Source: Eledone cirrhosa | Taxonomy: Eukaryota | Length of the DNA stretch: 64,000 nucleotides | NCBI GenBank assembly: GCA_964016885.1 | Contig: OZ024744.1 | Location: forward strand, 96,968,001 to 97,032,000 | Reading direction: 5' to 3' | In this document: positions 6,905-62,836 of the stretch, in pieces | How the letters are laid out: every line of letters begins with the position of its first letter | Numbering within the stretch: the stretch's first letter is position 1 | The notes under the pieces: generated by a model | What the model was told of the DNA's origin: nothing | What the model saw: only the letters and a program-made list of their open reading frames with translations | Databases searched by the model: none | Program-made: the position numbers and the translations under genes

Positions 6905-8686
6905 ATGGCCGAAGCTTCTTCACCAAAATTCGAAGGAGGAAAGGGGAAGATGAACTTACAGCTTCCCCCTGCCACTGTCACAGTAGCAGAGGTCAAGAAG
7001 ATAGGTCAGCCAGAGGAAGAATTCTCTCCACCTGTTAACCGACAACTTGACGTTACCATGGCAACAACCCAAAGAACCAACAGCAACAACAACAACAATG
7101 CGACGGTAGAAAACAACACCAATAACAATAACAATAACAACAACAAGACCAATAACGGTGACAACAACAACAATGATAACAACAACACCACCAACGACAA
7201 CAACAACACAAACAAACAAAATTTCTCCTTCGCCGAGACGACAAGGAAAACCCTCGACTATCTGCCAGTAGATATAACAAAAGCGAAGGAGCTACTGGCG
7301 GATGCGAAAAAATATATAGTGTACGGGGAAAATGGTTCATTCACAATCCATTCCCCCCCGGAACTAAAAAGCCAGAGACTCCTAAACACGGTCATGTTTA
7401 GGACAATCTCGAACAAAAGTAAAAAACCAGCTCAACCATCACAGAGCGAGATAGAGCTGGTTTTAAAAGACGTCATGAAGGACATCACCTTCATTCAGAA
7501 GGATAGACTCTACGGGAGTCTATCCATTCTCATGAAGGACAGGGACACAGCAGTGAAACTGTCCATCAAACCAATCACATCCACCGCATACACCTTCTAC
7601 CCTACGTACATGGGTAGAAGAACACAAAAAATAAAAATCCACACCATCCTGCCGATTATGGACATATGGTGGGTTTTGACAGGTTTTCTGGACCTGGAGG
7701 ATGACATGCTGGTGTCCATGGGAAAGGCATCGGGTGACGCGTTCAGTGGAACGAGCCTCGAACTTGTAGTTCAAATGAGGCCCGAAAGGATCGCCCAGAT
7801 CCCTGAACGCGTCATACTGGATGATCTAACCTTCATCAACATTACCGTTGAGGGTAGACGGCCCTCGTGTTACCTCTGCGGAACCAGAGGTCACCTGAGG
7901 GCTGTCTGTCCCCAACTTAATAAGAAAACCCCAATCCTGCCTACACCACCAACAACTGCACAACCAACACAATCACCACAACAACCACTACAAAAACAAC
8001 CACCACAGCTCAAACCAAAACAAAACAATGTCCAACCCATCCCCTCCACTCAAAAAACAAAAACAATTCCCAAAACACCCGTACCGCAAACACAACCCGA
8101 AAATATACCCCTCCCCTCCAACGCGGAAGATGACCCTAGTTCGTCGTCAGACGAGGAGGAGCACTTCCACACAATCAAAAGAAAAAAAAGAAAACACACC
8201 TCAGACACACAAATGAAAAAAACCCCTCCCCAAAACATAACACTGACACCAACACAAAAGAGCTCACAACAGCAAACAAAAAACACCACACAAAAACAAA
8301 AACATGCATACACATACATAAATACAAGAAACAAAAAACTGTTAAACATTGTGTACAACAACAATCTAATAAAAACACAAGGGCCTAACTTCACCCAGGC
8401 AGGGGATTTCCCCCACCTCAAAATGATTAAGGCCCCACAGGACACCTATAAAACTTTAAAAAACAATTTTAAAGAGGACGTGGGTCCCCCCTGCGTCGGG
8501 CCCATTAACCGAGTCCTCCTAAAAAACTATCCCACCCCCTCCCCAAACACCCTCACAACTCCAAGCTCCCCAACCACACAACACACTGATGCCCCCACAC
8601 TTCCACAAACCACCACCCCACCCAACAACCCATCCCCCACCCTAATGGAAATTGTGCAGCCCGATACCCGGGACGCAGAGAGGTAA
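6905..8686 (+). CDS. LINE ORF1 (gag-like nucleic-acid chaperone)
   Basis: 593-aa ORF with a CCHC knuckle CYLCGTRGHLRAVC preceded by ITVEGRRP, plus poly-N and P/T/Q-rich linkers and a basic KRKKRK patch. Confidence 0.9.
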   Translation: MAEASSPKFEGGKGKMNLQLPPATVTVAEVKKIGQPEEEFSPPVNRQLDVTMATTQRTNSNNNNNATVENNTNNNNNNNNKTNNGDNNNNDNNNTTNDNNNTNKQNFSFAETTRKTLDYLPVDITKAKELLADAKKYIVYGENGSFTIHSPPELKSQRLLNTVMFRTISNKSKKPAQPSQSEIELVLKDVMKDITFIQKDRLYGSLSILMKDRDTAVKLSIKPITSTAYTFYPTYMGRRTQKIKIHTILPIMDIWWVLTGFLDLEDDMLVSMGKASGDAFSGTSLELVVQMRPERIAQIPERVILDDLTFINITVEGRRPSCYLCGTRGHLRAVCPQLNKKTPILPTPPTTAQPTQSPQQPLQKQPPQLKPKQNNVQPIPSTQKTKTIPKTPVPQTQPENIPLPSNAEDDPSSSSDEEEHFHTIKRKKRKHTSDTQMKKTPPQNITLTPTQKSSQQQTKNTTQKQKHAYTYINTRNKKLLNIVYNNNLIKTQGPNFTQAGDFPHLKMIKAPQDTYKTLKNNFKEDVGPPCVGPINRVLLKNYPTPSPNTLTTPSSPTTQHTDAPTLPQTTTPPNNPSPTLMEIVQPDTRDAER

Positions 8687-8710
8687 GTGCCTTTTCTCTT
8701 CACCACCAAC

Positions 8711-11700
8711 ATGGCTATGCTAAGAGTAGGCTGTTTAAATGCGCGTGGCCTGGGCTCAACTTGGAAGCAAGCAATGCTTCTAAATGACCTCAGGTCACAA
8801 CGTATAGATGTGATGGTTATTTGCGAGGCCCGGATCAGCAACGTGCGACAGCTGGCCCCCACCTTTGATGACTTTGAGATGCACGCATCTCTCTGTCAGC
8901 CTGGAGGTGGGGGTGGAGTTGTCGTTCTGCTGCAAAAACATCTGGGTCTCGCAACACAGATGGTACATTTGGACCCGGAGGGTCGACTAGTGGTTCTGGA
9001 CCTTGGCAGTGGTAAAGGCGGAGCGTTTAGGTTGGTAGCCGCCTACGGCCCTTTCGGGTCAATGCGGCCGGACTTCTTCCATCGTCTGGAGACTTTTCTA
9101 GGGACGTCCCGCTCCTTGCTATTAGTGGGGGACTGGAATGGTATCCTAGATGCACGCTGGGACTACGTAGGGGCCTGCCCCGATAGAGAGGGGTGTAATA
9201 GCCTCAAAGGGTTAATCGGTCGATTTGACCTGGCCGATAGATATCGACTAGATTTTCCGACTGCGCCAACCTGGACTTGGGCAAATCGTAGCGGATCATC
9301 TAGGTCGTACCTAGATAGGTTCTTAGTTAGAATTAAGGATAAGGACTTTTTAAGTTGTCCAAAAATGCGCATTGTTGGCTATTCAGACCACAAATTAGTG
9401 ACCTGCATGGTCAACCTTGACAGAACTCATAGACAGGGCCCCGGTTACTGGAAGCTCAACTTGTCCTTGCCGGCAAGTAGAGCCTACAGGAATCGGATTA
9501 GTACGTTAGTTAAGGAACGGTTGACTGGAGCGATCGTCAACAGCAGGTGGTGGGTATCTCTAAAGAGAGAGATTAGAGTAGTCTCGATTGAATTTAGTAA
9601 GGTTCTAGCTGCGGATAGGAATAGGAAGGAAAGGGAGCTAATAGATAGAGTAGAAGAGGCAATTAGAAGCGGCGACGTGGCCAGAGTGCTAGCGTCGAGA
9701 ACGGCTTTGAGCCAGTTTTTCGACGCGAAGCACGAAGGCTGCGTTGTCCGAAGTAAAATACGTGCTCTAGGGAACGAGGGGACCAAAGCTGTTAGCTGGG
9801 CCCGCGTGACAGAGGCCAACAGTGGAACTAAATCCACCATCCGGTCTTTGCGAGACCTGGATGGACGGGCGATTCTTGAGCCTAAGCAGATGTGTGAGGC
9901 CTTTCAAAGGCACTTTGCCCGACTGTTCGGGAGGGGCGGGGAGCCGGTTGGGAACGTGGACTTCGGTCCATACCTCGACGGCCTGCCGCGCCTCTCGGAC
10001 AGGGAGGCGAAGTCCTGCGAGGAGCCGATTTCGGCCGCTGAGATAGAGGACGTGCTGAGCCAATGCGGCAAACGCAAATCCCCGGGTCTCGATGGTCTTC
10101 CTTACGAATTATATCTAGCTATGCCGGACTTGTTCCCCGATCTCCTCGAGGCGGTCTACTGCAACTGGCAACAGAACGGGAGAATTCCCTGTACTGTGAC
10201 CAAGGGCGTAGTCACGCTAGTGAGGAAGGACGAGAACAAGGGGGACGAAATAAGTAACTTCAGGCCCATAACACTGCTAAATACAGAGTTACAGATTTTG
10301 GCCAAGGTGCTAGCAAAGAGGTTGGCGCTTGTCGTGGGCAAACTGGTGGGAGATGCGCAGACATGCGCTATCCCGTCCAGGTCCATCCATGACAACCTCC
10401 ACCTCATGCGATACATCATAGAGAGGGTTGGGAACGAACCCGGCTTTGGTGGGGCTCTGATCAACTTGGATCAATCTAAGGCGTTCGATAGGGTCGACCA
10501 TGGTTACCTGGATGCGGTGCTAGCGGCGGCAGGCTTCGGACCCGTTTTCAGGGGCTGGATCACTGCTATGCACAGCAGCCGCATCTGCTCTAGGGTCAAG
10601 GTGAACGGCTACCTCTCGGAGCCGTTCAAAATCGCGCGGTCCATCCGACAAGGGTGCCCTCTCTCCTCCCTTCTGTATGTATTGACTCTCGAGCCACTAC
10701 TGCGGAAGTTGGAGTTGTTGCAGGGCATCCCTTTGGAACCGGGATTGCGGAAAGCGGTGTCGGCCTACGCCGATGACGTGACAGTAATGGTGTCGACGGC
10801 CTCCGAAATCGAGGCGGTCGGCACCTTACTGGAGGAGTACGAAAAGTTCACAGGGGCTAAGCTGAACCGGGACAAGTCGATCGGTTTGCAACTCGGCACG
10901 TGGAGGGGCAGACCGATGCCCTCCGATAGCGTCGTCGGACGCTGGACGGAGGGCCCGGTGAAGTTGCTCGGGGTCTGGTTCGGACCGGACCTCCAGGTGG
11001 AGAAAAACTGGGCGGAGGTTACGAACAGAGTGTTTGCACTGACCCAGAAGTGGGCCAGTTGCAAACTATCCCTTAAAGGTCGGGCGGAGGTGGCGAACAC
11101 CTACATAGCGTCCGTCATCTACTACCGCCTGACCGTAGTGCCCTGCCCAAGGGAAACCCTCACCAAGATGGAGCGCGCGCTCTTCCAATTCCTTTGGAAG
11201 AGGCGGGCTCCTATGGTGAGGAGATCCATCTGCTGTCAACACCCTTCGAAAGGAGGGCTGGGGATGCCGTGGCTAATGATGCGTAAACACGCATTAAGGC
11301 TACGGCACCTCTACGTATTCCTCACCGGACAACCGGTGTGGGCCTCGTTTATGAGACGAACCTTTCCCAGACTCGTCTCACTGACCGAGCTGCAATCCTG
11401 GGTCAAGCAAAGACCGAGAAAACTGGGCGCCTGGCACACTGCGTGTGCCCAGGCGCTCACCGCCCTCTGGCAGGCGGATCCGGTTATCAGTGGAGACTCC
11501 ACCGCAACATTCTATAGAGGGCTGGTACGCAGCAGGTGCGACGACGCCCTCGGAGAAGCCCTAGACATGGAGGAGGACGAACTGGCCAGCCTTTTCGGTA
11601 GGACATTCAGCCCGGGACCTATGGACAACTTCCAGAAGTCCCTGGCCTGGCAGTGCTACCGAGGGGCTTTACCCGTTCGAGAAAGGCTCTACAGACACGG

Positions 11701-12148
11701 GCGCCCGGGTAGGGACCCCGCCAAAAAGATCTGTCCCAGATGCGTGTGCGACGAGGAAACCGTTGCACACGCATTAGTACACTGCTCGGGCGTAGCCGAT
11801 CTGTGGGGCTATGTCGAACAACTGCTGTCAAGGGTGGGACCAATCCGGTTGACCACCGAGTCTATTGTAATGATCAAGCCGCCTCCCCCCTTCAAAGATG
11901 AAGCAGAGGCGGTGTTTCTGTGCGTAATAGCCATGGCGAAAGAGGTTGTATGGTGGACGCGTCTGAAAGGACTGAGGTCGGGCACCTTTCTCTCTGGCCA
12001 ACAACTGGTCCGTTTCTTCCGATATCATTTCGGAAGAAGGATCAGGATGGAGAGAGAGGTGCTGCACCCCAGCCGTTTCTATGAAAGATGGGTGAAAGTG
12101 GCGAGAATGGCCCGTGTGAATGGGCCTTCACTCTACATCAGACTATAG
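8711..12148 (+). CDS. LINE ORF2: AP-like endonuclease + reverse transcriptase + C-terminal zinc finger
   Basis: APE motifs LNARG, GDWN, YLDRF, SDH. RT motifs KSPGLDG, FRPITLLN, DQSKAFD, QGCPLS, YADD. C-terminal CPRC..EETVAHALVHC. The ATG at 8711 is in a CCAACATGG context; the reading frame is open from 8687. Confidence 0.95.
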   Translation: MAMLRVGCLNARGLGSTWKQAMLLNDLRSQRIDVMVICEARISNVRQLAPTFDDFEMHASLCQPGGGGGVVVLLQKHLGLATQMVHLDPEGRLVVLDLGSGKGGAFRLVAAYGPFGSMRPDFFHRLETFLGTSRSLLLVGDWNGILDARWDYVGACPDREGCNSLKGLIGRFDLADRYRLDFPTAPTWTWANRSGSSRSYLDRFLVRIKDKDFLSCPKMRIVGYSDHKLVTCMVNLDRTHRQGPGYWKLNLSLPASRAYRNRISTLVKERLTGAIVNSRWWVSLKREIRVVSIEFSKVLAADRNRKERELIDRVEEAIRSGDVARVLASRTALSQFFDAKHEGCVVRSKIRALGNEGTKAVSWARVTEANSGTKSTIRSLRDLDGRAILEPKQMCEAFQRHFARLFGRGGEPVGNVDFGPYLDGLPRLSDREAKSCEEPISAAEIEDVLSQCGKRKSPGLDGLPYELYLAMPDLFPDLLEAVYCNWQQNGRIPCTVTKGVVTLVRKDENKGDEISNFRPITLLNTELQILAKVLAKRLALVVGKLVGDAQTCAIPSRSIHDNLHLMRYIIERVGNEPGFGGALINLDQSKAFDRVDHGYLDAVLAAAGFGPVFRGWITAMHSSRICSRVKVNGYLSEPFKIARSIRQGCPLSSLLYVLTLEPLLRKLELLQGIPLEPGLRKAVSAYADDVTVMVSTASEIEAVGTLLEEYEKFTGAKLNRDKSIGLQLGTWRGRPMPSDSVVGRWTEGPVKLLGVWFGPDLQVEKNWAEVTNRVFALTQKWASCKLSLKGRAEVANTYIASVIYYRLTVVPCPRETLTKMERALFQFLWKRRAPMVRRSICCQHPSKGGLGMPWLMMRKHALRLRHLYVFLTGQPVWASFMRRTFPRLVSLTELQSWVKQRPRKLGAWHTACAQALTALWQADPVISGDSTATFYRGLVRSRCDDALGEALDMEEDELASLFGRTFSPGPMDNFQKSLAWQCYRGALPVRERLYRHGRPGRDPAKKICPRCVCDEETVAHALVHCSGVADLWGYVEQLLSRVGPIRLTTESIVMIKPPPPFKDEAEAVFLCVIAMAKEVVWWTRLKGLRSGTFLSGQQLVRFFRYHFGRRIRMEREVLHPSRFYERWVKVARMARVNGPSLYIRL

Positions 12149-16894: not shown

Positions 16895-17909
16895 AACAAA
16901 GTCAATCTGTGAACGCAGAAGTGAATATTTCAAAAAAACGTTGCAACCGGAGGAAGACAGGAAGACGATACTTTGGTTCGTGGAAACGTTCCCTGGCAAA
17001 GAACGGGGGAAAAACGAGTATAATACGTCATTATTTGGAGCAGTGAAAAACAATTACAAGCAAAGACAAAACCACGTTTATGGTATAAAAGAAGTCGTAG
17101 ACAAATATTCTATTATGTGGTTCATAGAGACGTTCTCAGGCAGTGAACGGAAAAAACGAAGATAATACGTCATATGAGAAAGACAAAACCACGTAAATGG
17201 TATAGCTGAAGTCGTAGACTAAAATTCTAACTAGGAAACCGAATGATTCTCGGCTTCAGAGTTAAGAATAAAGTAAATAAAATACAGAGGTAATTGAAAT
17301 AAATACATACACGCATTCGTATACGTACATACACAAGCATACGCGAAAACACTCGCCATAGGTATACATATACACGCACGTAGATAAAAAAAAAACACAC
17401 GCACATACAGAACCCACTCAATGCCTGTACCCACACACGTACGAATGTATACACCAAATACCCACAAAAATATACATTAAAATATATATATTAATATATA
17501 TATGTGTGTGTGTGTGCGTGTATACATATAATTAAATAAACGCACACAAACAAACAAATACGTATACAACAAGCGCACACACATACCTACATGTAAATAC
17601 ACACATGTTCAAAACACGAAGTACACATATACACACACCCTACATACGCACGAACCCGCATATTTACACAGAAGCAAAACATATACACGTCGATAAGGTA
17701 TACACATAACCAAAAGCATATGTACCAGAATATATAATATATACGCCATAACACATACAATCAAATATACGTATGAGGAAGTATACGTACCTTCATAAAA
17801 CATACAGGTAATATATACTTACCTATACAAATAAGTAACTGCACAAACACAACATATACTTAGCTACCACACCAAGACGTAAAATATCCGCGTATAGTTC
17901 GTACTTCCG

Positions 17910-19986
17910 CTAGGGTATAATGTGTGGCTGTAATACAGGAAAGTTTTGTGCAATTTGTTTACAAGCCGAAATTGCCCCAGACTTTTTGTTTAAGATGTGG
18001 TCTTTTGCGCAGTGTATCTCCAGAGCCCCAGCGACGCAGAGGCCACATGGTCCTCCACTTCCGCTACACGATCCAGCCCTAGCAAGGATCTCCCAGTGTA
18101 ACCCACACTGGGTATGGTTGTCTCCTAGACTCCAGATATAAGCTGAAAGTGACGTCATATTTCTTCTTAAAGGGTAACGAAAAGAATGGATATGCATCTA
18201 AAGACGCTGCCTGAATCTATTGGCGGTTAACCCTGTGTAGGCCTTACGGGACGTGGGTGTTTCAACCTTACATTTGTAGACAGTGTTACTAGAGAGGCAT
18301 TTCCCGGATAGGGGGCAGTCAACCCGATTCCTACAATTACAGTCGGTACTACCTACACGGTTGCACGTGTTCCCACGGCTAGGCAGCTTAGCTAAATCTG
18401 AAGCTGTGATGTTATGTGCAAGGCCAGGAGTCGTAGAGTAAGAAATGTTAATAGTATCTCTATTAAAAATTTTACTATGTTTATGTGTAGGGGGAAAATG
18501 CACCATAATAAGGGAAAGAAAGATCTTAGCTAATGGTGTGGGCACCTTTATATTATATGGTGGGTTATACCGGGATCTATTTCTTCTAGGTCTATTCTCG
18601 TACTCTGTATATGCTACCTTATCGACAAATCCACTCCGAGCAAGAGCTTCCTTGTAATATGTGGAATGGTCGTTGAAAATATGCTCGTTAGTAGATAGAC
18701 GGGAAAGCCTCAAAGAAACGTTTCTTACCAGGTTCTTGGTTAAGCTGGCAGGATGGTTAGAAAGCTTACTTATGTAATTAAGCGTATCATTCGGCTTTCT
18801 ATACGGGTAATGAAAGCCATTCGATAAACTGAGGGTAACGTCGAGGTAATTAACGACAGAGAGGTTGGCCGCAACCTGTATGGTGAAGTTGAAGCCTTTA
18901 AAGAAGGCTGTGAGTTCTTTTCTGAACCTGTCGCAAGCACGTGGGCCGCACTTAGTCATGGTCAAAAGACCATCATCACGGTACAAACCACCGCCCATGT
19001 TGGGGAATTCTTCCTTGATAGAGAAAAAAGGAAAAGGCCGATAAGATCAGTAACCTCCGCAGAATCGCTGGTGCCCACACTCACGTCGAATGGGGATTTT
19101 TTAATCCAAATAGAGTCGTCGAAATTAATCACCGACTTACGGGCATTAAAGATGACATCAACTTCGAAATCCTTAACCACTGTGAGTGTTTTAGAGAAAT
19201 TGATAGCTCTAAGGAGAAGTGGTAAAGTGATGGAGGAATAGTAATTGTTGATGTCGAATTGGATAAAACGGCAATGTTCCTTGTTGCATATGCCATTGAA
19301 CTAATCAATCACCGGGAAAGAATTGTTCCACAGTGCAAGAGGGGCCAAACTTCTAATTTCAGGTATAATTCTATCAAGAATCCTTTTACTAAGTCTACCT
19401 AAATCGGACTTCGTAGGGTTAATAAGCCAAATAGGAGGGTTGTTCGGAAAATTGGATTTGTGATCCTTCAGGGTAAAGTGGAGAGAAATAGGGTCCAGAG
19501 GTTCAGTCCGGTCCAGGATGTTGAGATCAGAGGTGATTTTAAACCCAGCATCGTTGATTTCATTAATGACGCTCCGATTAGTTTTACGGTAATCCTTAGT
19601 TACAGCATTATGTAGGAGTTGATGGTAAGTACTGCGCTCAACTTGATATAGGTTGCCAGTTTTGTCGGAGTGGACGTGCACAAACGAATTCTATTCTTCA
19701 GGTCCTGCTGGAAGGAATTGCTCCTATTCCGAAATTTGATACTCCGTATGAGTTCCAAGACATCATTTTCGAACGGTAGCAATGCTGGGTTACTCGGAGG
19801 GTTATTATAGGTTTAAATCCAAATTTATTTGTTGTCTGCTTTTCCCTGATTATCGAAATAAAAGGCACGCCAACGCAACCTTTTAATGAACGCGTCTGTT
19901 TTCTGTATCAGGAGTTTTAGGTATGTTTTCCTGCTTGGTACGGGTATGTCCTTTGTAGAAATATTCAGATGTTGTTTCTGCATGAT
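17910..19986 (-). pseudogene. PLE RT-GIY-YIG endonuclease ORF broken by stops and frameshifts
   Basis: Fragments in order: STKDIPVPS..LIQKTDAFIKRLRWRAFYF; DKTGNLY, KDHKSNF, LINPTKSDLG; GGLYRDDGL, NYLDV, YRKPND..Y...SNHP; CNCRNRVDCPLSGKC..VYKC..YTGLT; TSLSAYIWSL..WEIL..CGLC. Confidence 0.9.
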
Positions 19987-20536
19987 GAATAGAGTGCTCA
20001 ACCGAGGGAGCCAAATAGTAATATTAATAAATTTGAAGACTAAAATCCAAAGAGGGCTCGATAAGAATAAATATATATCAAAAATATATATATATATCAA
20101 ATATATATCAAATATATATGAACCGTAGAGCAAAATATTATTCTTAACTCTGAAGCCGAGAATCATTCGGTTTCCTAGTTAGAATTTTAGTCTACGACTT
20201 CTGTTATACCATAAAAGTGGTTTTGTCTTTGCGTGCAATTGTTCTCCCCGCTCCACATATGACGTATTATCTTCGTTTATTCCGTTCATTGCCTGAGAAC
20301 ATCTCTATGAACCACCTAATAGAATATTTGTCTACCACTTCCTTTATACCATAAACGTGGTTTTGTCTTTGCGTGTAATTGTTTTTCACCGCTCCTATTA
20401 ATGACGTATCTTATTCGTTTTTTCCCGTTCTTTGCCAGCGAACGTTACCACGAACCAAAGTATCGTCTTCCTGTCTTCCTCCGGTTGCAACGTTTTTTTT
20501 AAATATTCACTTCTGCGTTTACAGATTGACTTTGTT

Positions 20537-23199: not shown

Positions 23200-24632
23200 C
23201 CGGTGTTTACAATTAATAACTGATTCTGCTCGGCTGTTTATGAGCTCGTGGGATGTTCTTATGATGTAGTACAGCTTCATGAGGCAGAGCTGGCATTTCC
23301 CCTGAAGTTGTAGGGTGCAGTCCTACTGACAATATCCCAGTGTGTGGAGAAGCTTATGTTGGCGTCTAGCAATCTGGTGACGTAGTTGGCAAGCGATGTG
23401 GAGTGCCTTAGTTTTGTTTGTTCCTGAAAGAGTGGAGATGCGTTCTAAATCTCGTTTTAAACTGGCCAGAGGTGGCTCCTATATAGTGTTTAACTCCGCT
23501 ATGGCTAGTTACGGTGCACCTATAAATAACCTTATCGGTCAGGCAGTTTCCCCTGAGAGGGCAGCCTCTCCTGTCACGACATATCCATTTTCCGTCACGG
23601 TCGCTCCTAGTTCATGAAGTAAAGCTGTTACTATTGCTACCTATGTTGTTATCTATGTCTCTAATTCTGTCATTGATACTGTTATCTCTCAAGGCGTACG
23701 GTGTTGTACCATTATTATTCCGCACGCCTCAGCCCGTTCTGCAACCGGTGGGTCACGCGTGTGGGTCGCCGGTATATTCTCCAATCACACCCTGATTACG
23801 TGGGTTTCGTCTGCCGGGGCGGCCATCAACCCTATTTGGTGCTGTTAGGAGTATGTTAAGGTAATTCGTTTTTTTGTCAGGTCTAGATGTATCTGTGCTA
23901 AGGTGTAGTGTTTTGTTAATCTTACTGTGATTAGTTGCTCCTATGATGTCAGCTAGATTGGGGGTGGTAGAGAAGGATATTTTGATATTGTTCCTGTTAA
24001 GTATTTTTCTTTATTTATGATTAGAAGAATATCCTCGGTACGTCGGAGGCCACACTCCGAGAGAGTCGGGGGGGGGGACCATATGATATTACGGTGGCGT
24101 TTCCGCTTTACAGTGGGTTTGCTACATGTTGTGCTTCCTAGTTGACAGTACTTACGGTTGTTCCTGTGCTGTAGCCGGTTATACGTCCCCATTACTTTAT
24201 GTTCAGGTAAGGGTGCCTTACCTCCGTACTTTTTGTGTGTGGCTAGACGCGGGTTGGAGGGTGTTGGTAATAGGCCGCCGCCATTGCTAGTCTTATAGTT
24301 AAGGAATAATTCCAATAGGCTGCAGCGATTGGCGTTGCCAATCGGGTAACACTTACCATACTGTCGGTTGTCTTGGTCGCCACTCATATAATTAACGGTG
24401 TGGCCAAGTTTCTTAGTGTGGTTCTCTATACTATAGTTCTTGACACTGTCATGGCTGTAGCGTGCTCTGTTATAGGTATGGCTTACTATAACATTAGTCC
24501 TATGTTGGGGTTGGTTTCTATAGCTAGCGTTCAGGATGTAGGATATTTTCCGGTTAAAACCGGCATTTAGTAAAGGCTTATTGTAATATTCGGCCGCTTG
24601 GTTGAAGATATCTTCATTGGCGGAGAGCCTCG
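23200..24632 (-). pseudogene. Decayed 5'-truncated Penelope-like element (RT thumb to GIY-YIG)
   Basis: SRLSANEDIFNQAAEYYNKPLLNAGF parallels LSRLSTNEHIFNDHSTYYKEALARSGF in the 18-kb element. RHRNIIWSPP follows. Minus-strand remnants HWDIVSRTAPYN and GKCQLCLMK lie near 23270-23350. Confidence 0.7.
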
Positions 24633-24633
24633 A

Positions 24634-25380
<747 letters not shown>

Positions 25381-38838: not shown

Positions 38839-40169
<1,331 letters not shown>

Positions 40170-56931: not shown

Positions 56932-57012
56932 ATATTTATATATATATATATATACATATTTATACATATATATATACACATACATATATATTTATATATA
57001 TTTTTTTTTTTT

Positions 57013-57976
57013 ATAAAGAAATTTTAGCCTGATAGTGGGGTTTAGAATCCTCAGAGAAATGGAAAAAGATGAGTATTGGCGTACATGGGAGTCGAACCCA
57101 CATCTTTGGTTATCCAGACCACTGTGCTACCATTACACCAACACATCACTCATCTCCTTCCATTCAAATTAGAAGCTACATTCTTAGCAAGTATGATGAC
57201 AAGTAAGTATGTTTTGAAACAGTGAGCAAGTTTGAAATTAGAAAATAGAAGCTTTCACCCTATTTTTTTTTTTACTAAAGATTTTTTAGCCTGATAGTGG
57301 GGTTTAGAACCCTCAGAGAAATGGAAAAAGGTGAGTATTGACGTACATGGCAGTCCAACCTACATCTTTGGTTATCCAGACCACTGTGCTACCATTACAC
57401 CAACACATCACCCATCTCCTTCCATTCAAATTAGAAGCTACATTCTTAGCAAATATGATGACAAGTAAGTATGTTTTGAAACAGTGAGCAAGTTTGAAAT
57501 TAGAAAATAGAAGCTTTCACCGTATTTTTTTTTTTTTTCGACTAAAGAAATTTTAGCCTGATAAGTAAGTATGTTTTGAAACATTTCATTTCTCTGAGGG
57601 TTCTAAACCCCACTATCAGGCTAAAATTTCTTTAGTAAAAAAAAAAAATACGGTGAAAAGCTTCTATTTTCTAATTTCAAACTTGCTCACTGGTTCAAAA
57701 CATACTTACTTGTCATCATACTTGCTAAGAATGTAGATTCTAATTTGAATGGAAGGAGATGGATGATGTGTTGGTGTCATGGTAGCACAATGGTCTGGAT
57801 AACCAAAGATGTGGTTTCGACTCCTATGTACGTCAATACTCATCATTTTCCATTTCTCTGAGGGTTCTAAACCCCACTATCAAGCTAAAATTTCTTTAGT
57901 AAAAAAAAAAGAAAATACGGTGAAAGCTTCTATTTTCTAATTTCAAACTTGCTCACTGTTTCAAAACATACTTACT

Positions 57977-59579: not shown

Positions 59580-59841
59580 AAGATATTATTAAATGGAAAC
59601 TATATTTCTAAAACCATATTTATTCAATTATATATATTTCAAGGGTACAGGAATCAGGTCTTAACGGTTCAAGTTCCGTTTGGAACTTGAACCGTTAAGG
59701 TCTGATTCCTGGGTATTTATGAAACAAACTTTCTATTTTATCTGATGAGCGCGTACCAAAGTTTTGGTATCCTTGAAATATATATAATAGAATAAATATG
59801 GTTTTATAAATATAGTTTCCATTTATTAATATCATTGATAT
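59574..59841 (+). mobile_element. Fold-back element with hammerhead (59734-59794) and internal hairpin
   Basis: TATTTTAT-CTGATGA-GCGCGTACCAAA(GT)TTTGGTATCCTT-GAAA-TATATA-TA-ATAGAATA. Outer inverted arms lie at 59574-59648 and 59767-59841, and a ~30-bp-arm hairpin at 59648-59711. Confidence 0.8.
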
Positions 59842-59910
59842 TAACCTCCATAAAACCAGTCGAGTTATAAATATATTTGTTTAATTACCAACAAATTAAA
59901 TATACCTTTG

Positions 59911-60504: not shown

Positions 60505-60586
60505 TATATCATTGTAAATGATCGCCTGAGATTTGAACTCATTATTATTGATTTATATATATATGTATATATATATATATATATAT

Positions 60587-60718
60587 AACGAAGGAAATGT
60601 GGTAAGGAACCAGGTGGACCATAACGCAACAAAGTACTCAATACTTGAGGAGTAGAGTGGGTAATAGAATTAGCTGTCGAAACGGCTTGAGCTCAGCTGT
60701 CGGGGTCTTACTGGTTCC

Positions 60719-60720
<2 letters not shown>
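60587..60720. mobile_element. Family-B element (rearranged)
   Basis: The inverted tail is joined to GAATTAGCTGTC-GAAA-CGGCTTGAGCTCAGCTG-TC-GGGGTC. Confidence 0.7.
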
Positions 60721-60752
<32 letters not shown>

Positions 60753-60764
60753 ATTATATATAAA

Positions 60765-60879
<115 letters not shown>

Positions 60880-61042
60880 CATGTATATATAAGCATGCAT
60901 GTGTGTAAACATACATACCTACATACATACAACATATACATACATATATTATATATATGTATATATATATTCATAAATATATATGTGTGTATATGCATAC
61001 ATACATACATACATACATACATACACACATGTATGTATATAT

Positions 61043-62836
61043 AGCTAAGTATTCTATAAGTCTCTAGCTGTGTCATTCTCGATAAAAGCACTGGATATGT
61101 AGTCCTGATGATTTCTAACAAGAATGAAACGCGTAGATTACTTCCCTTGCTTTTATCGAGAATCTAATTGTAATACGTGACGTATTCTATTCTATAGCGA
61201 TTAGGTCTTCAAAATGTTTATTATAAACATACAGAATATTTTCGAATATTCTATGTCTATATTCACATATATATCGCTATTTCAGAGCATTTATTCCAAT
61301 TTCTAATTTCTGCCGGACCGGCAACCGCTCTTTCAAACCAGTTCCTGTACACAGCTAAGTATTCTATAAGTCTCTAGCTGTGTCATTCTCGATAAAAGCA
61401 CTGGATATGTAGTCCTGATGATTTCTAACAAGAATGAAACGCGTAGATTACTTCCCTTGCTTTTACCGAGAATCTAATTGTAATACGTGACGTATTCTAT
61501 TCTATAGCGATTAGGTCTTCTAAATGTTTATTATAAACATACAGAATATTTTCGAATATTCTATGTCTATATTCACATATATATCGCTATTTCAGAGCAT
61601 TTATTCCAATTTCTAATTTCTGCCGGACCGGCAACCGCTCTTTCAAACCAGTTCCTGTACACAGCTAAGTATTCTATAAGTCTCTAGCTGTGTCATTCTC
61701 GATAAAAGCACTGGATATGTAGTCCTGATGATTTCTAACAAGAATGAAACGCGTAGATTACTTCCCTTGCTTTTATCGAGAATCTAATTGTAATACGTGA
61801 CGTATTCTATTCTATAGCGATTAGGTCTTCAAAATGTTTATTATAAACATACAGAATATTTTCGAATATTCTATGTCTATATTCACATATATATCGCTAT
61901 TTCAGAGCATTTATTCCAATTTCTAATTTCTGCCGGACCGGCAACCGCTCTTTCAAACCAGTTCCTGTACACAGCTAAGTATTCTATAAGTCTCTAGCTG
62001 TGTCATTCTCGATAAAAGCACTGGATATGTAGTCCTGATGATTTCTAACAAGAATGAAACGCGTAGATTACTTCCCTTGCTTTTATCGAGAATCTAATTG
62101 TAATACGTGACGTATTCTATTCTATAGCGATTAGGTCTTCAAAATGTTTATTATAAACATACAGAATATTTTCGAATATTCTATGTCTATATTCACATAT
62201 ATATCGCTATTTCAGAGCATTTATTCCAATTTCTAATTTCTGCCGGACCGGCAACCGCTCTTTCAAACCAGTTCCTGTACACAGCTAAGTATTCTATAAG
62301 TCTCTAGCTGTGTCATTCTCGATAAAAGCACTGGATATGTAGTCCTGATGATTTCTAACAAGAATGAAACGCGTAGATTACTTCCCTTGCTTTTATCGAG
62401 AATCTAATTGTAATACGTGACGTATTCTATTCTATAGCGATTAGGTCTTCAAAATGTTTATTATAAACATACAGAATATTTTCGAATATTCTATGTCTAT
62501 ATTCACATATATATCGCTATTTCAGAGCATTTATTCCAATTTCTAATTTCTGCCGGACCGGCAACCGCTCTTTCAAACCAGTTCCTGTACACAGCTAAGT
62601 ATTCTATAAGTCTCTAGCTGTGTCATTCTCGATAAAAGCACTGGATATGTAGTCCTGATGATTTCTAACAAGAATGAAACGCGTAGATTACTTCCCTTGC
62701 TTTTATCGAGAATCTAATTGTAATACGTGACGTATTCTATTCTATAGCGATTAGGTCTTCAAAATGTTTATTATAAACATACAGAATATTTTCGAATATT
62801 CTATGTCTATATTCACATATATATATATATATCGCT
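61043..62836 (+). mobile_element. Tandem array of 310-bp hammerhead-containing units (non-LTR retrozyme candidate)
   Basis: Units start at 61043, 61353, 61663, 61973, 62283 and 62593. They are nearly identical and have no ORF in the track. Confidence 0.9.
61099..61141 (+). ncRNA. Minimal type I hammerhead (first of six; others at 61409, 61719, 62029, 62339, 62649)
   Basis: GTAGTC-CTGATGA-TTTCT(AACA)AGAAT-GAAA-CGCG-TA-GATTAC. The GUA triplet predicts cleavage after 61135. Confidence 0.9.

Follow-up and report, generated by a model that had tools for sequence, protein, structure and literature searches.

Organization of the array in the window

The locus raises the question of how a homogeneous tandem array of noncoding, ribozyme-bearing units came to lie in a (TA)n-rich microsatellite. 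The array is likely a single young insertion of a noncoding hammerhead element, in which an RNA circle was copied into (TA)n by a Penelope-like protein acting in trans. In the window, the whole stretch of 64,000 nucleotides that was analyzed, a period of 310 spans 61043–62824 (1,782 bp, 5.75 units), and TRF gave 5.7 copies at 99%. The preliminary description had extended the array to 62836; its start was correct, but the last 12 nt consist of 8 nt of TA and a 4-nt match, and the period stops at 62824. Its estimate of about 5.8 near-identical noncoding units agrees with our measurement, and the two substitutions it counted, both in unit 2, were recovered as 61466 T>C and 61521 A>T, with units 1, 3, 4, and 5 identical. 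The array is AT-rich (GC <50%), its longest stop-free stretch in six frames is 59 aa, and it has no coding potential. Six hammerhead cores (CTGATGA...GAAA), all intact, are found at 61105+310k. The features of the locus are as follows.

61043–62824 (+): single tail-less arm of the candidate retrozyme, 5.75 units of 310 bp, unit position 1 to 232 (TRF, period analysis, locus L031)
61099–61141 (+): type I hammerhead motif of unit 1, repeated every 310 bp in six copies (stem I GTAGTC/GATTAC, core CUGAUGA/GAAA, stem II, palindromic ACGCGT)
61135–61136 (+): predicted self-cleavage site 3′ of GUA (unit 93/94), every 310 bp (from the hammerhead consensus)
61075–61163 (+): 16-bp helix prolonging stem I (61075–61090 with 61148–61163), which joins the monomer ends in the predicted fold (covariation)
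61136–61445 (+): predicted 310-nt monomer or circle, five per array (from the predicted fold)
61194–61274 (+): 3′ module, unit 152–232, with two hairpins and the CACATATATAT tract, which is the tail-less arm end; common to at least three older retrozyme families
61275–61305 (+): "tail," unit 233–258/263, the second-arm end (258 or 263) in bipartite insertions (arm-end positions)
62815–62832 (+): 3′ junction, at which the unit's own TA tract merges into the target (TA)n; putative priming site (junction sequence)
60719–61042 (no strand): (TA)n-rich microsatellite target left of the arm, with no discernible target-site duplication

The tail sequence is internal in every unit of the window and does not form an end at this locus. 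Target-site duplications are not visible because the target is (TA)n. The (TA)n cluster around the array is a shared insertion hot spot. Other short element ends lie in the same cluster (59640–59880 and 60586–60719), and one short element end near the array has a hammerhead-like core at 59742. Elsewhere in the window, an intact-looking LINE on the plus strand (6905–12148) has two open frames, one of 593 aa followed by one of 1,153 aa that matches APE endonuclease, RVT_1, and zf-RVT. A 262-bp tandem (57002–57835) has two minus-strand tRNA-like matches and a third on the plus strand.

A canonical type I hammerhead in every unit

The motif reads GTAGTC CTGATGA T TTCT AACA AGAA T GAAA CGCG TA^GATTAC, where ^ marks the predicted cut. 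A 6-bp stem I (GTAGTC/GATTAC) is combined with a 4-bp stem II (TTCT/AGAA) that is closed by a U.U mismatch and has the loop AACA, and helix III consists of one pair capped by the palindrome ACGCGT; in unit 1, the cleavage triplet GUA occupies 61133–61135. The positions previously assigned to stem I, stem II, ACGCGT, GUA (61135), and the 16-bp helix (61075–61090/61148–61163) were all verified. The label of minimal hammerhead was not upheld: the definitions in PMC4209133 class the motif, with its single-pair helix III capped by the palindrome, as canonical type I, the metazoan form of which acts as a dimer (PMC4209133).

The 101-nt ribozyme domain has a folding z of −5.83 (0 of 200 shuffles as stable), and the predicted 310-nt monomer, whose two ends are paired in the predicted fold, has a z of −4.38 (0 of 100 shuffles). 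The energy model places the double hammerhead of a tandem dimer 7 kcal/mol below two single hammerheads, and the free minimum-energy fold of the dimer 6.4 kcal/mol below the double hammerhead. Rfam gave no match at the gathering threshold in the window array, the best score being a subthreshold 19.2 bits for Hammerhead_HH9 (cut-off 52; E of 0.074 and 0.01). On the minus strand of the array, neither a hammerhead core nor an Rfam ribozyme match was found. Older sister families align over the whole unit, and 95.5% of cells pair, compared with 34–48% in slid controls. Across families, both sides have changed in 19 of 27 pairs overall and in 9 of the 15 counted pairs of the 16-bp helix, the covariation shuffle test being inflated by kinship of the sequences; moreover, one sister family has replaced C3-G8 of the hammerhead core by U3-A8. 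Judged from the z-scores of domain and monomer together with the helix covariation, the predicted hammerhead fold exceeds chance.

At least three older retrozyme families (L047–L050, L093, and L134–L163) have the same 3′ module and tail hairpin with different hammerheads, one of them with the U3-A8 core. A second, older tandem hammerhead family with a unit of ~480–510 bp, stem II AGCT/AGCT with a U.U base, and the palindrome ACTAGT is present in the window at ~38850–39930 (−) and 24600–25200 and is common in the fetched loci. Short head-to-head pairs of another hammerhead-bearing end were also seen (27698/27706, 30178/30192, 40295/40333, 2961, and 4311); its core and stem II are close to those of the 310-bp family, and it has 27,663 exact 27-nt matches genome-wide.

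Selection appears to act on this fold in the copies that spread. At loci selected independently of the ribozyme pattern, variants fixed throughout an insertion were compatible with the fold in 10 of 11 cases and private variants in 3 of 21 (Fisher p = 4e-5), as scored by a hand-made rule derived from the hammerhead consensus. All nine fixed variants in the ribozyme were compatible (~25% expected). Of the two in the 16-bp helix, one was compatible, and the other pairs with a second, compensatory change to give C-G. Because the fixed variants retain the fold, copies that keep spreading seem to maintain a working fold, which a model with an uncleaved template does not need.

A large, dispersed family of the retrozyme class

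The host is a mollusc and probably a cephalopod: its genome contains haemocyanin genes of molluscan type, and among PDB chains of a single functional unit they match best the squid and octopus entries 4yd9_C and 1js8_A (607 and 600 bits; the next scored 431). An exact 32-nt ribozyme pattern had 13,025 matches in the 3.0-Gb genome and none in the reversed control, and the family makes up ~4 Mb of DNA. Junction patterns, all followed by TA, located 1,001 ends at unit position 258, 297 at 263, and 1,091 at 232 (1,298 with tail and 1,091 tail-less). The number of insertions is thus at least ~1,300, exact patterns giving an undercount. Private substitutions amounted to 0.43 per kb over 168,831 bases, and the insertions appear to be young. 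Copies are dispersed, with a median of 3.7 units per arm and up to at least 18. The preliminary description had named a single-locus array without dispersed relatives as the mark of simple DNA slippage; the family is large, dispersed, and variable in unit number, which argues against slippage at one locus, and the retrozyme reading stands. The permuted end points that it anticipated were found for the variable 5′ ends but not for the 3′ ends, which are fixed at two sites.

The tandem noncoding units lie within the 150–450 bp range with a GC content below 50%, every unit has a hammerhead, and dimers to multimers are dispersed in the genome, as in retrozymes. No LTR, primer-binding site (PBS), or polypurine tract (PPT) is present, since both outer arm ends run directly into (TA)n. 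On these features, the family almost certainly belongs to the metazoan non-LTR retrozyme class. A plant LTR retrozyme was rejected, being defined by a type III hammerhead in LTRs, PBS, PPT, and a 4-bp target-site duplication, whereas here the topology is type I and LTRs are lacking. A viroid-like agent with symmetric rolling circle was likewise rejected, as it needs a ribozyme on both strands and the minus strand has no core or Rfam match. Pattern scans of metagenome and viral contigs for the family returned no matches.

Two-armed insertions with a one-ended tail

We fetched 91 regions around hits to the family or its sister families and scored arms of >97% identity, which gave 75 rows (64 arm pairs and 11 single arms). 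Arms of ≤97% identity (L041, L051, L056, and the short arm of L045), the nested duplicated loci L032 and L033, and sister-family loci were left out of the counts. In each pair, the 5′ ends face each other head to head, and the 3′ ends point outward into (TA)n. One end lay at 231–232 and the other at 256–263, i.e., 26–31 nt further, in 59 of the 64 pairs, and no pair had two ends of one kind; in 40 fetched regions, selected by a tail end at 258, one end of the pair was preset by that choice. Three of the remaining five pairs were cut by the fetch window, and two are pieces of one complex locus. Among the 11 single arms, three were cut by a contig end, fetch window, or gap, one had a short subthreshold partner, and seven were true singles; the tail-less window array is one of these seven in 75 rows.

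This arrangement, an inverted truncated copy with a tail at one end, is the Penelope "tail" signature. An inverted truncated copy and a 30–40 bp tail at one end are a hallmark of Penelope-like elements (PLEs) (10.1101/2021.04.23.441226, PMC3846280), and in work with a purified PLE protein, AT-rich DNA was cut and extended on both strands, synthesis beginning at two internal positions between which the tail lies (PMC11167929). In addition, a coding PLE of the same genome has an equal two-armed build with its own tail. Family-wide, the insertions show the inverted 5′-truncated copy, one-ended tail, and (TA)n target of nonautonomous PLEs, the window locus being one-armed only. The (TA)n target, the inverted 5′-truncated arm, and the 26–31 nt tail lend support from sequence to the earlier suggestion of a Penelope-like reverse transcriptase (RT), and mobilization of the family by PLE machinery is very likely.

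Inner junctions were mostly blunt or had 1–6 nt of overlap. The 128 inner ends were scattered round the unit with slight nonuniformity (Rayleigh p ~0.02). The tail arm was longer in 35 pairs and the other arm in 23. Fold-back copying of the first cDNA was rejected as the origin of one arm because the longer arm may be either, and private variants were not mirrored between arms.

Template haplotypes point to a probable monomer circle

The two arms shared one monomer haplotype in 38 of 42 pairs with at least two units per arm (chance, 0.081). Of the four discordant pairs, L200 and L202 are alignment placement artifacts, and L173 and L198 are true mosaics. We found 30 haplotypes in 64 insertions, 22 of them once; therefore, new variants have repeatedly been amplified from one unit to a whole array. 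Only 1 of 50 private substitutions was common to both arms in register, and minority variants at any register were present in both arms in 4 cases and in one arm in 62. This low in-register sharing and the finding that either arm may be longer show that the two arms of an insertion were made independently. The cleavage-site region (90–98) contained 2 of the 128 inner ends, compared with 3.7 expected, and no indels occurred at unit positions 91–95 in 697 passes over the cleavage site. A covalent monomer circle would account for the haplotype sharing, the spread of inner ends, and the clean passage of the cleavage site, mosaics excepted, and is in our judgment the probable explanation; mobilization via such a circle is likewise probable.

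Three loci depart from this picture. In L198, each arm contains two haplotypes, whose order counted from the 3′ end is the same in the two arms; L173 is a mosaic, and L164 has one minority variant in both arms; these patterns do not follow from a single monomer circle, and L198 fits a linear multimer or later interlocus conversion. In the long arm of L185 (610–10000), 174A and 177A recur together in 6 of 31 units, and the long arm of L164 (5407–10000) has a seven-unit repeat of 294T/94T. These recurring variants appear to reflect tandem DNA duplication after insertion, by which a few long arrays would have grown. Loci L032 and L033 on C14, 267 kb apart, represent a duplicated segment with nested old and young arrays in one orientation. 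A recurring single 114C change, considered as an RT hot spot, was an artifact of using unit 2 as the query.

The main alternative is that an uncleaved linear multimer from a source array served as template for Penelope-type twin priming, with the ribozyme serving another step and with lengthening and homogenization at the DNA level. Internal initiation permits priming in any unit, and cleavage is dispensable in vitro (PMC11167929); this model also predicts clean passage of the cleavage site and is favored by the in-register mosaic of L198 and the shared variant of L164. However, a linear multimer alone cannot fix new variants over up to 30 units in both arms, as would be needed for the 22 of 64 insertions with a haplotype seen once, and it is at odds with minority variants being in one arm in 62 cases and in both arms in only 4. 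Moreover, none of six variants shared between loci was on one haplotype (a small sample with low power), and ribozyme-breaking changes, which should be tolerated or favored, are absent among fixed variants. Overall, we regard this model as unlikely.

Less probable still is a nicked circle, formed by a cleaved linear monomer that stem I keeps closed, with the RT jumping the nick, or homogeneous multimers made by RNA-to-RNA copying of a circle and read by the RT. The monomer ends do pair in the predicted fold, and the rare mosaic arms could be jumps between molecules; against this, 697 crossings of the site show no indel or excess of stops, and the minus strand has no ribozyme match. Spread at the DNA level only, either as PLE end fragments grown by unequal exchange or as extrachromosomal DNA circles amplified and reinserted, has been proposed for retrozymes (10.64898/2026.07.22.740005) and agrees with the duplication traces in L185 and L164. 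It is very improbable here and already largely refuted by the fixed 3′ ends with strand polarity and tail, the inverted arms with one haplotype in register to their ends, the near-identical units, and the apparent selection on the RNA fold. Finally, expansion of one unit in assembly, to which the identity of units 1, 3, 4, and 5 might point, has a negligible probability given the two private changes in unit 2, distinct haplotypes and junctions at scores of loci, and self-closure of the unit in contigs of independent runs.

Candidate partner elements and public sequencing runs

The genome holds RT-GIY-YIG ORFs of ~710 aa and other PLE families, so that autonomous PLEs co-occur with the family, as they do with other retrozymes. 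None of the three coding families inspected (that of the window's PLE fragment and two others) has a coding PLE with the family's 3′ module. These three and the hammerhead-bearing end family with a similar stem II were rejected as partners because all have other 3′ ends, and a module-like fragment used as the query retrieved a different, older retrozyme family. The window's fragment (17907–19992, −) is a broken copy of an abundant RT-GIY-YIG Penelope-like family with 64,295 first-look candidates and frames of up to ~730 aa elsewhere; its 3′ hammerhead-like core has CAGAAGA in place of CUGANGA.

Twenty public runs under 17 organism labels contain 76–100% of the unit's words, with no RNA-labeled run among those listed. 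In seven runs that were compared, the unit formed one 331–340-nt contig with 0–2 differences, and closed 340-nt contigs are equally expected from tandem DNA. One run set covered the host SINE but not the unique flank, and another also covered a second high-copy host repeat; a Hi-C run with the same organism label as X12 had no reads on the unique flank or host SINE in 1.9 Gb. Horizontal spread was rejected as an explanation of these matches, since trace host DNA suffices at 13,000 copies, and they have no bearing on expression or transfer. In run X4, the repeat neighboring the unit (L199:1995–2470) was several hundred times deeper than the unit, unlike in X10, X12, and X17; X4 may come from a related species in which near-identical copies are few, or may contain trace DNA of the host.

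Proposed mechanism

The two-armed anatomy, the fixed 3′ and variable 5′ ends, and the single haplotype per insertion are directly visible in the sequence, and the following route would produce them. Read-through transcription of an array would yield RNA in which adjacent hammerheads are predicted to pair via ACGCGT into a double hammerhead and to cut 3′ of GUA, releasing 310-nt monomers. By analogy with other retrozymes, a host ligase such as RtcB would close the monomer, whose ends stem I and the 16-bp helix bring together; within the circle, the single ribozyme would be slow. As the junctions suggest, a GIY-YIG endonuclease would then cut both (TA)n strands, and each 3′ end would prime reverse transcription on the common template, one at the UA tract (unit 223–232) and one 26–31 nt downstream (258/263). 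Each RT would make a varying number of rounds of the template (median 3.7, up to at least 18 units) and halt at an arbitrary point, and the two cDNAs would be joined head to head, blunt or by microhomology. At the one-armed window locus, one priming may have failed, or the inverted arm may have been deleted afterwards.

Three published observations bear on this route. Only one of nine Xenopus retrozyme dimers cleaved in vitro, which speaks against a circle (10.64898/2026.07.22.740005); the anole PLE did not need hammerhead cleavage in vitro and mainly used unprocessed RNA (PMC11167929); and axolotl also contains multimeric RNAs (PMC7229834). On balance, we lean slightly toward reading the family as a genome-scale fossil record of a Penelope-type RT acting on a ribozyme-made RNA circle and priming from both target ends at once.

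Implications

For animal retrozymes, the circle-to-genome step and the mobilizing enzyme have been hypotheses only (PMC7229834). A recent study favors local tandem growth from PLE ends and calls the mechanism open (10.64898/2026.07.22.740005), and the tandem and inverted structures of PLEs have been called undefined (10.1101/2021.04.23.441226). An RNA-circle route via a Penelope-type RT has long been proposed, and the insertion structure of this family suggests it. Two independent arms per template haplotype provide a statistical test among circle, linear multimer, and DNA expansion, and the family names RNA elements for an in vitro system, namely the UA tract, tail, and hairpins. If the fossil-record reading is true, it ties retrozyme movement to the origin of the inverted-repeat-plus-tail structure of PLEs; each of more than 1,000 recent near-identical events would document which haplotype served as template, where both arms started, and how processive the RT was, and one 3′ module would be reused by at least four related families with different hammerheads. 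Furthermore, the family marks ~4 Mb of long inverted repeats in the genome, and a small circular RNA is predicted to be abundant in the cephalopod-like host.

Comparison with known systems

The class is known, and the family is almost certainly an additional member of it. Like the coral, mussel, and axolotl non-LTR retrozymes (PMC7229834), it consists of noncoding, low-GC tandem units of 150–450 bp with a type I hammerhead in each, lacks LTR, PBS, and PPT, and has thousands of copies. Its ribozyme combines the one-pair, palindrome-capped helix III of axolotl Amex1 with the U.U-closed helix II of Amex2 (PMC7229834). Unlike those retrozymes as described in PMC7229834, in whose main text the words "inverted" and "cephalopod" are absent, the family has two-armed insertions, a tail, and one haplotype per insertion. 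Minimal hammerheads paired on opposite strands have been noted in Schistosoma (PMC4209133) and head-to-tail nonautonomous insertions in Chlamys (10.1101/2021.04.23.441226, the preprint of PMC8557442); therefore, parts of the pattern are already on record. In the open literature on retrozymes, hammerheads, and PLEs, outside subscription papers, Repbase, and Dfam, we found no account of the family or of two-armed retrozyme insertions; the PMC7229834 supplement, one PMC4209133 file, and the tables of 10.64898/2026.07.22.740005 also lie outside this scope and may list cephalopod repeats.

Vertebrate retrozymes, described as PLE derivatives (10.64898/2026.07.22.740005), are similarly nonautonomous, PLE-dependent tandem hammerhead repeats. 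That study, in the part available, rests on co-occurrence and pLTR trees with no mollusc sampled, and its available text does not contain the words "tail," "junction," or "haplotype"; here, the insertion footprint points to PLE machinery, and a homologous pLTR was not found among the three coding families. Like EN+ PLEs of the Hydra/Neptune/Naiad type, which insert into (TA)n, the family has an inverted 5′-truncated copy, a type I hammerhead, and a microsatellite target (PMC8557442, PMC11167929). EN+ PLEs have a one-ended tail of 30–40 bp bounded by two internal RT starts, and likewise here (PMC8557442, PMC11167929). Both start sites of the family share short AT microhomology with the target, whereas initiation by the anole element involves no homology (PMC11167929). 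Unlike EN+ PLEs, the family has no ORF, and both of its arms are multimers of the 310-nt unit. In L1 twin priming, both target ends prime on one RNA to give an inversion joined by microhomology, and the two cDNAs cover nonoverlapping parts of a linear RNA. Here, in contrast, each arm consists of many repeats of one and the same 310-nt sequence.
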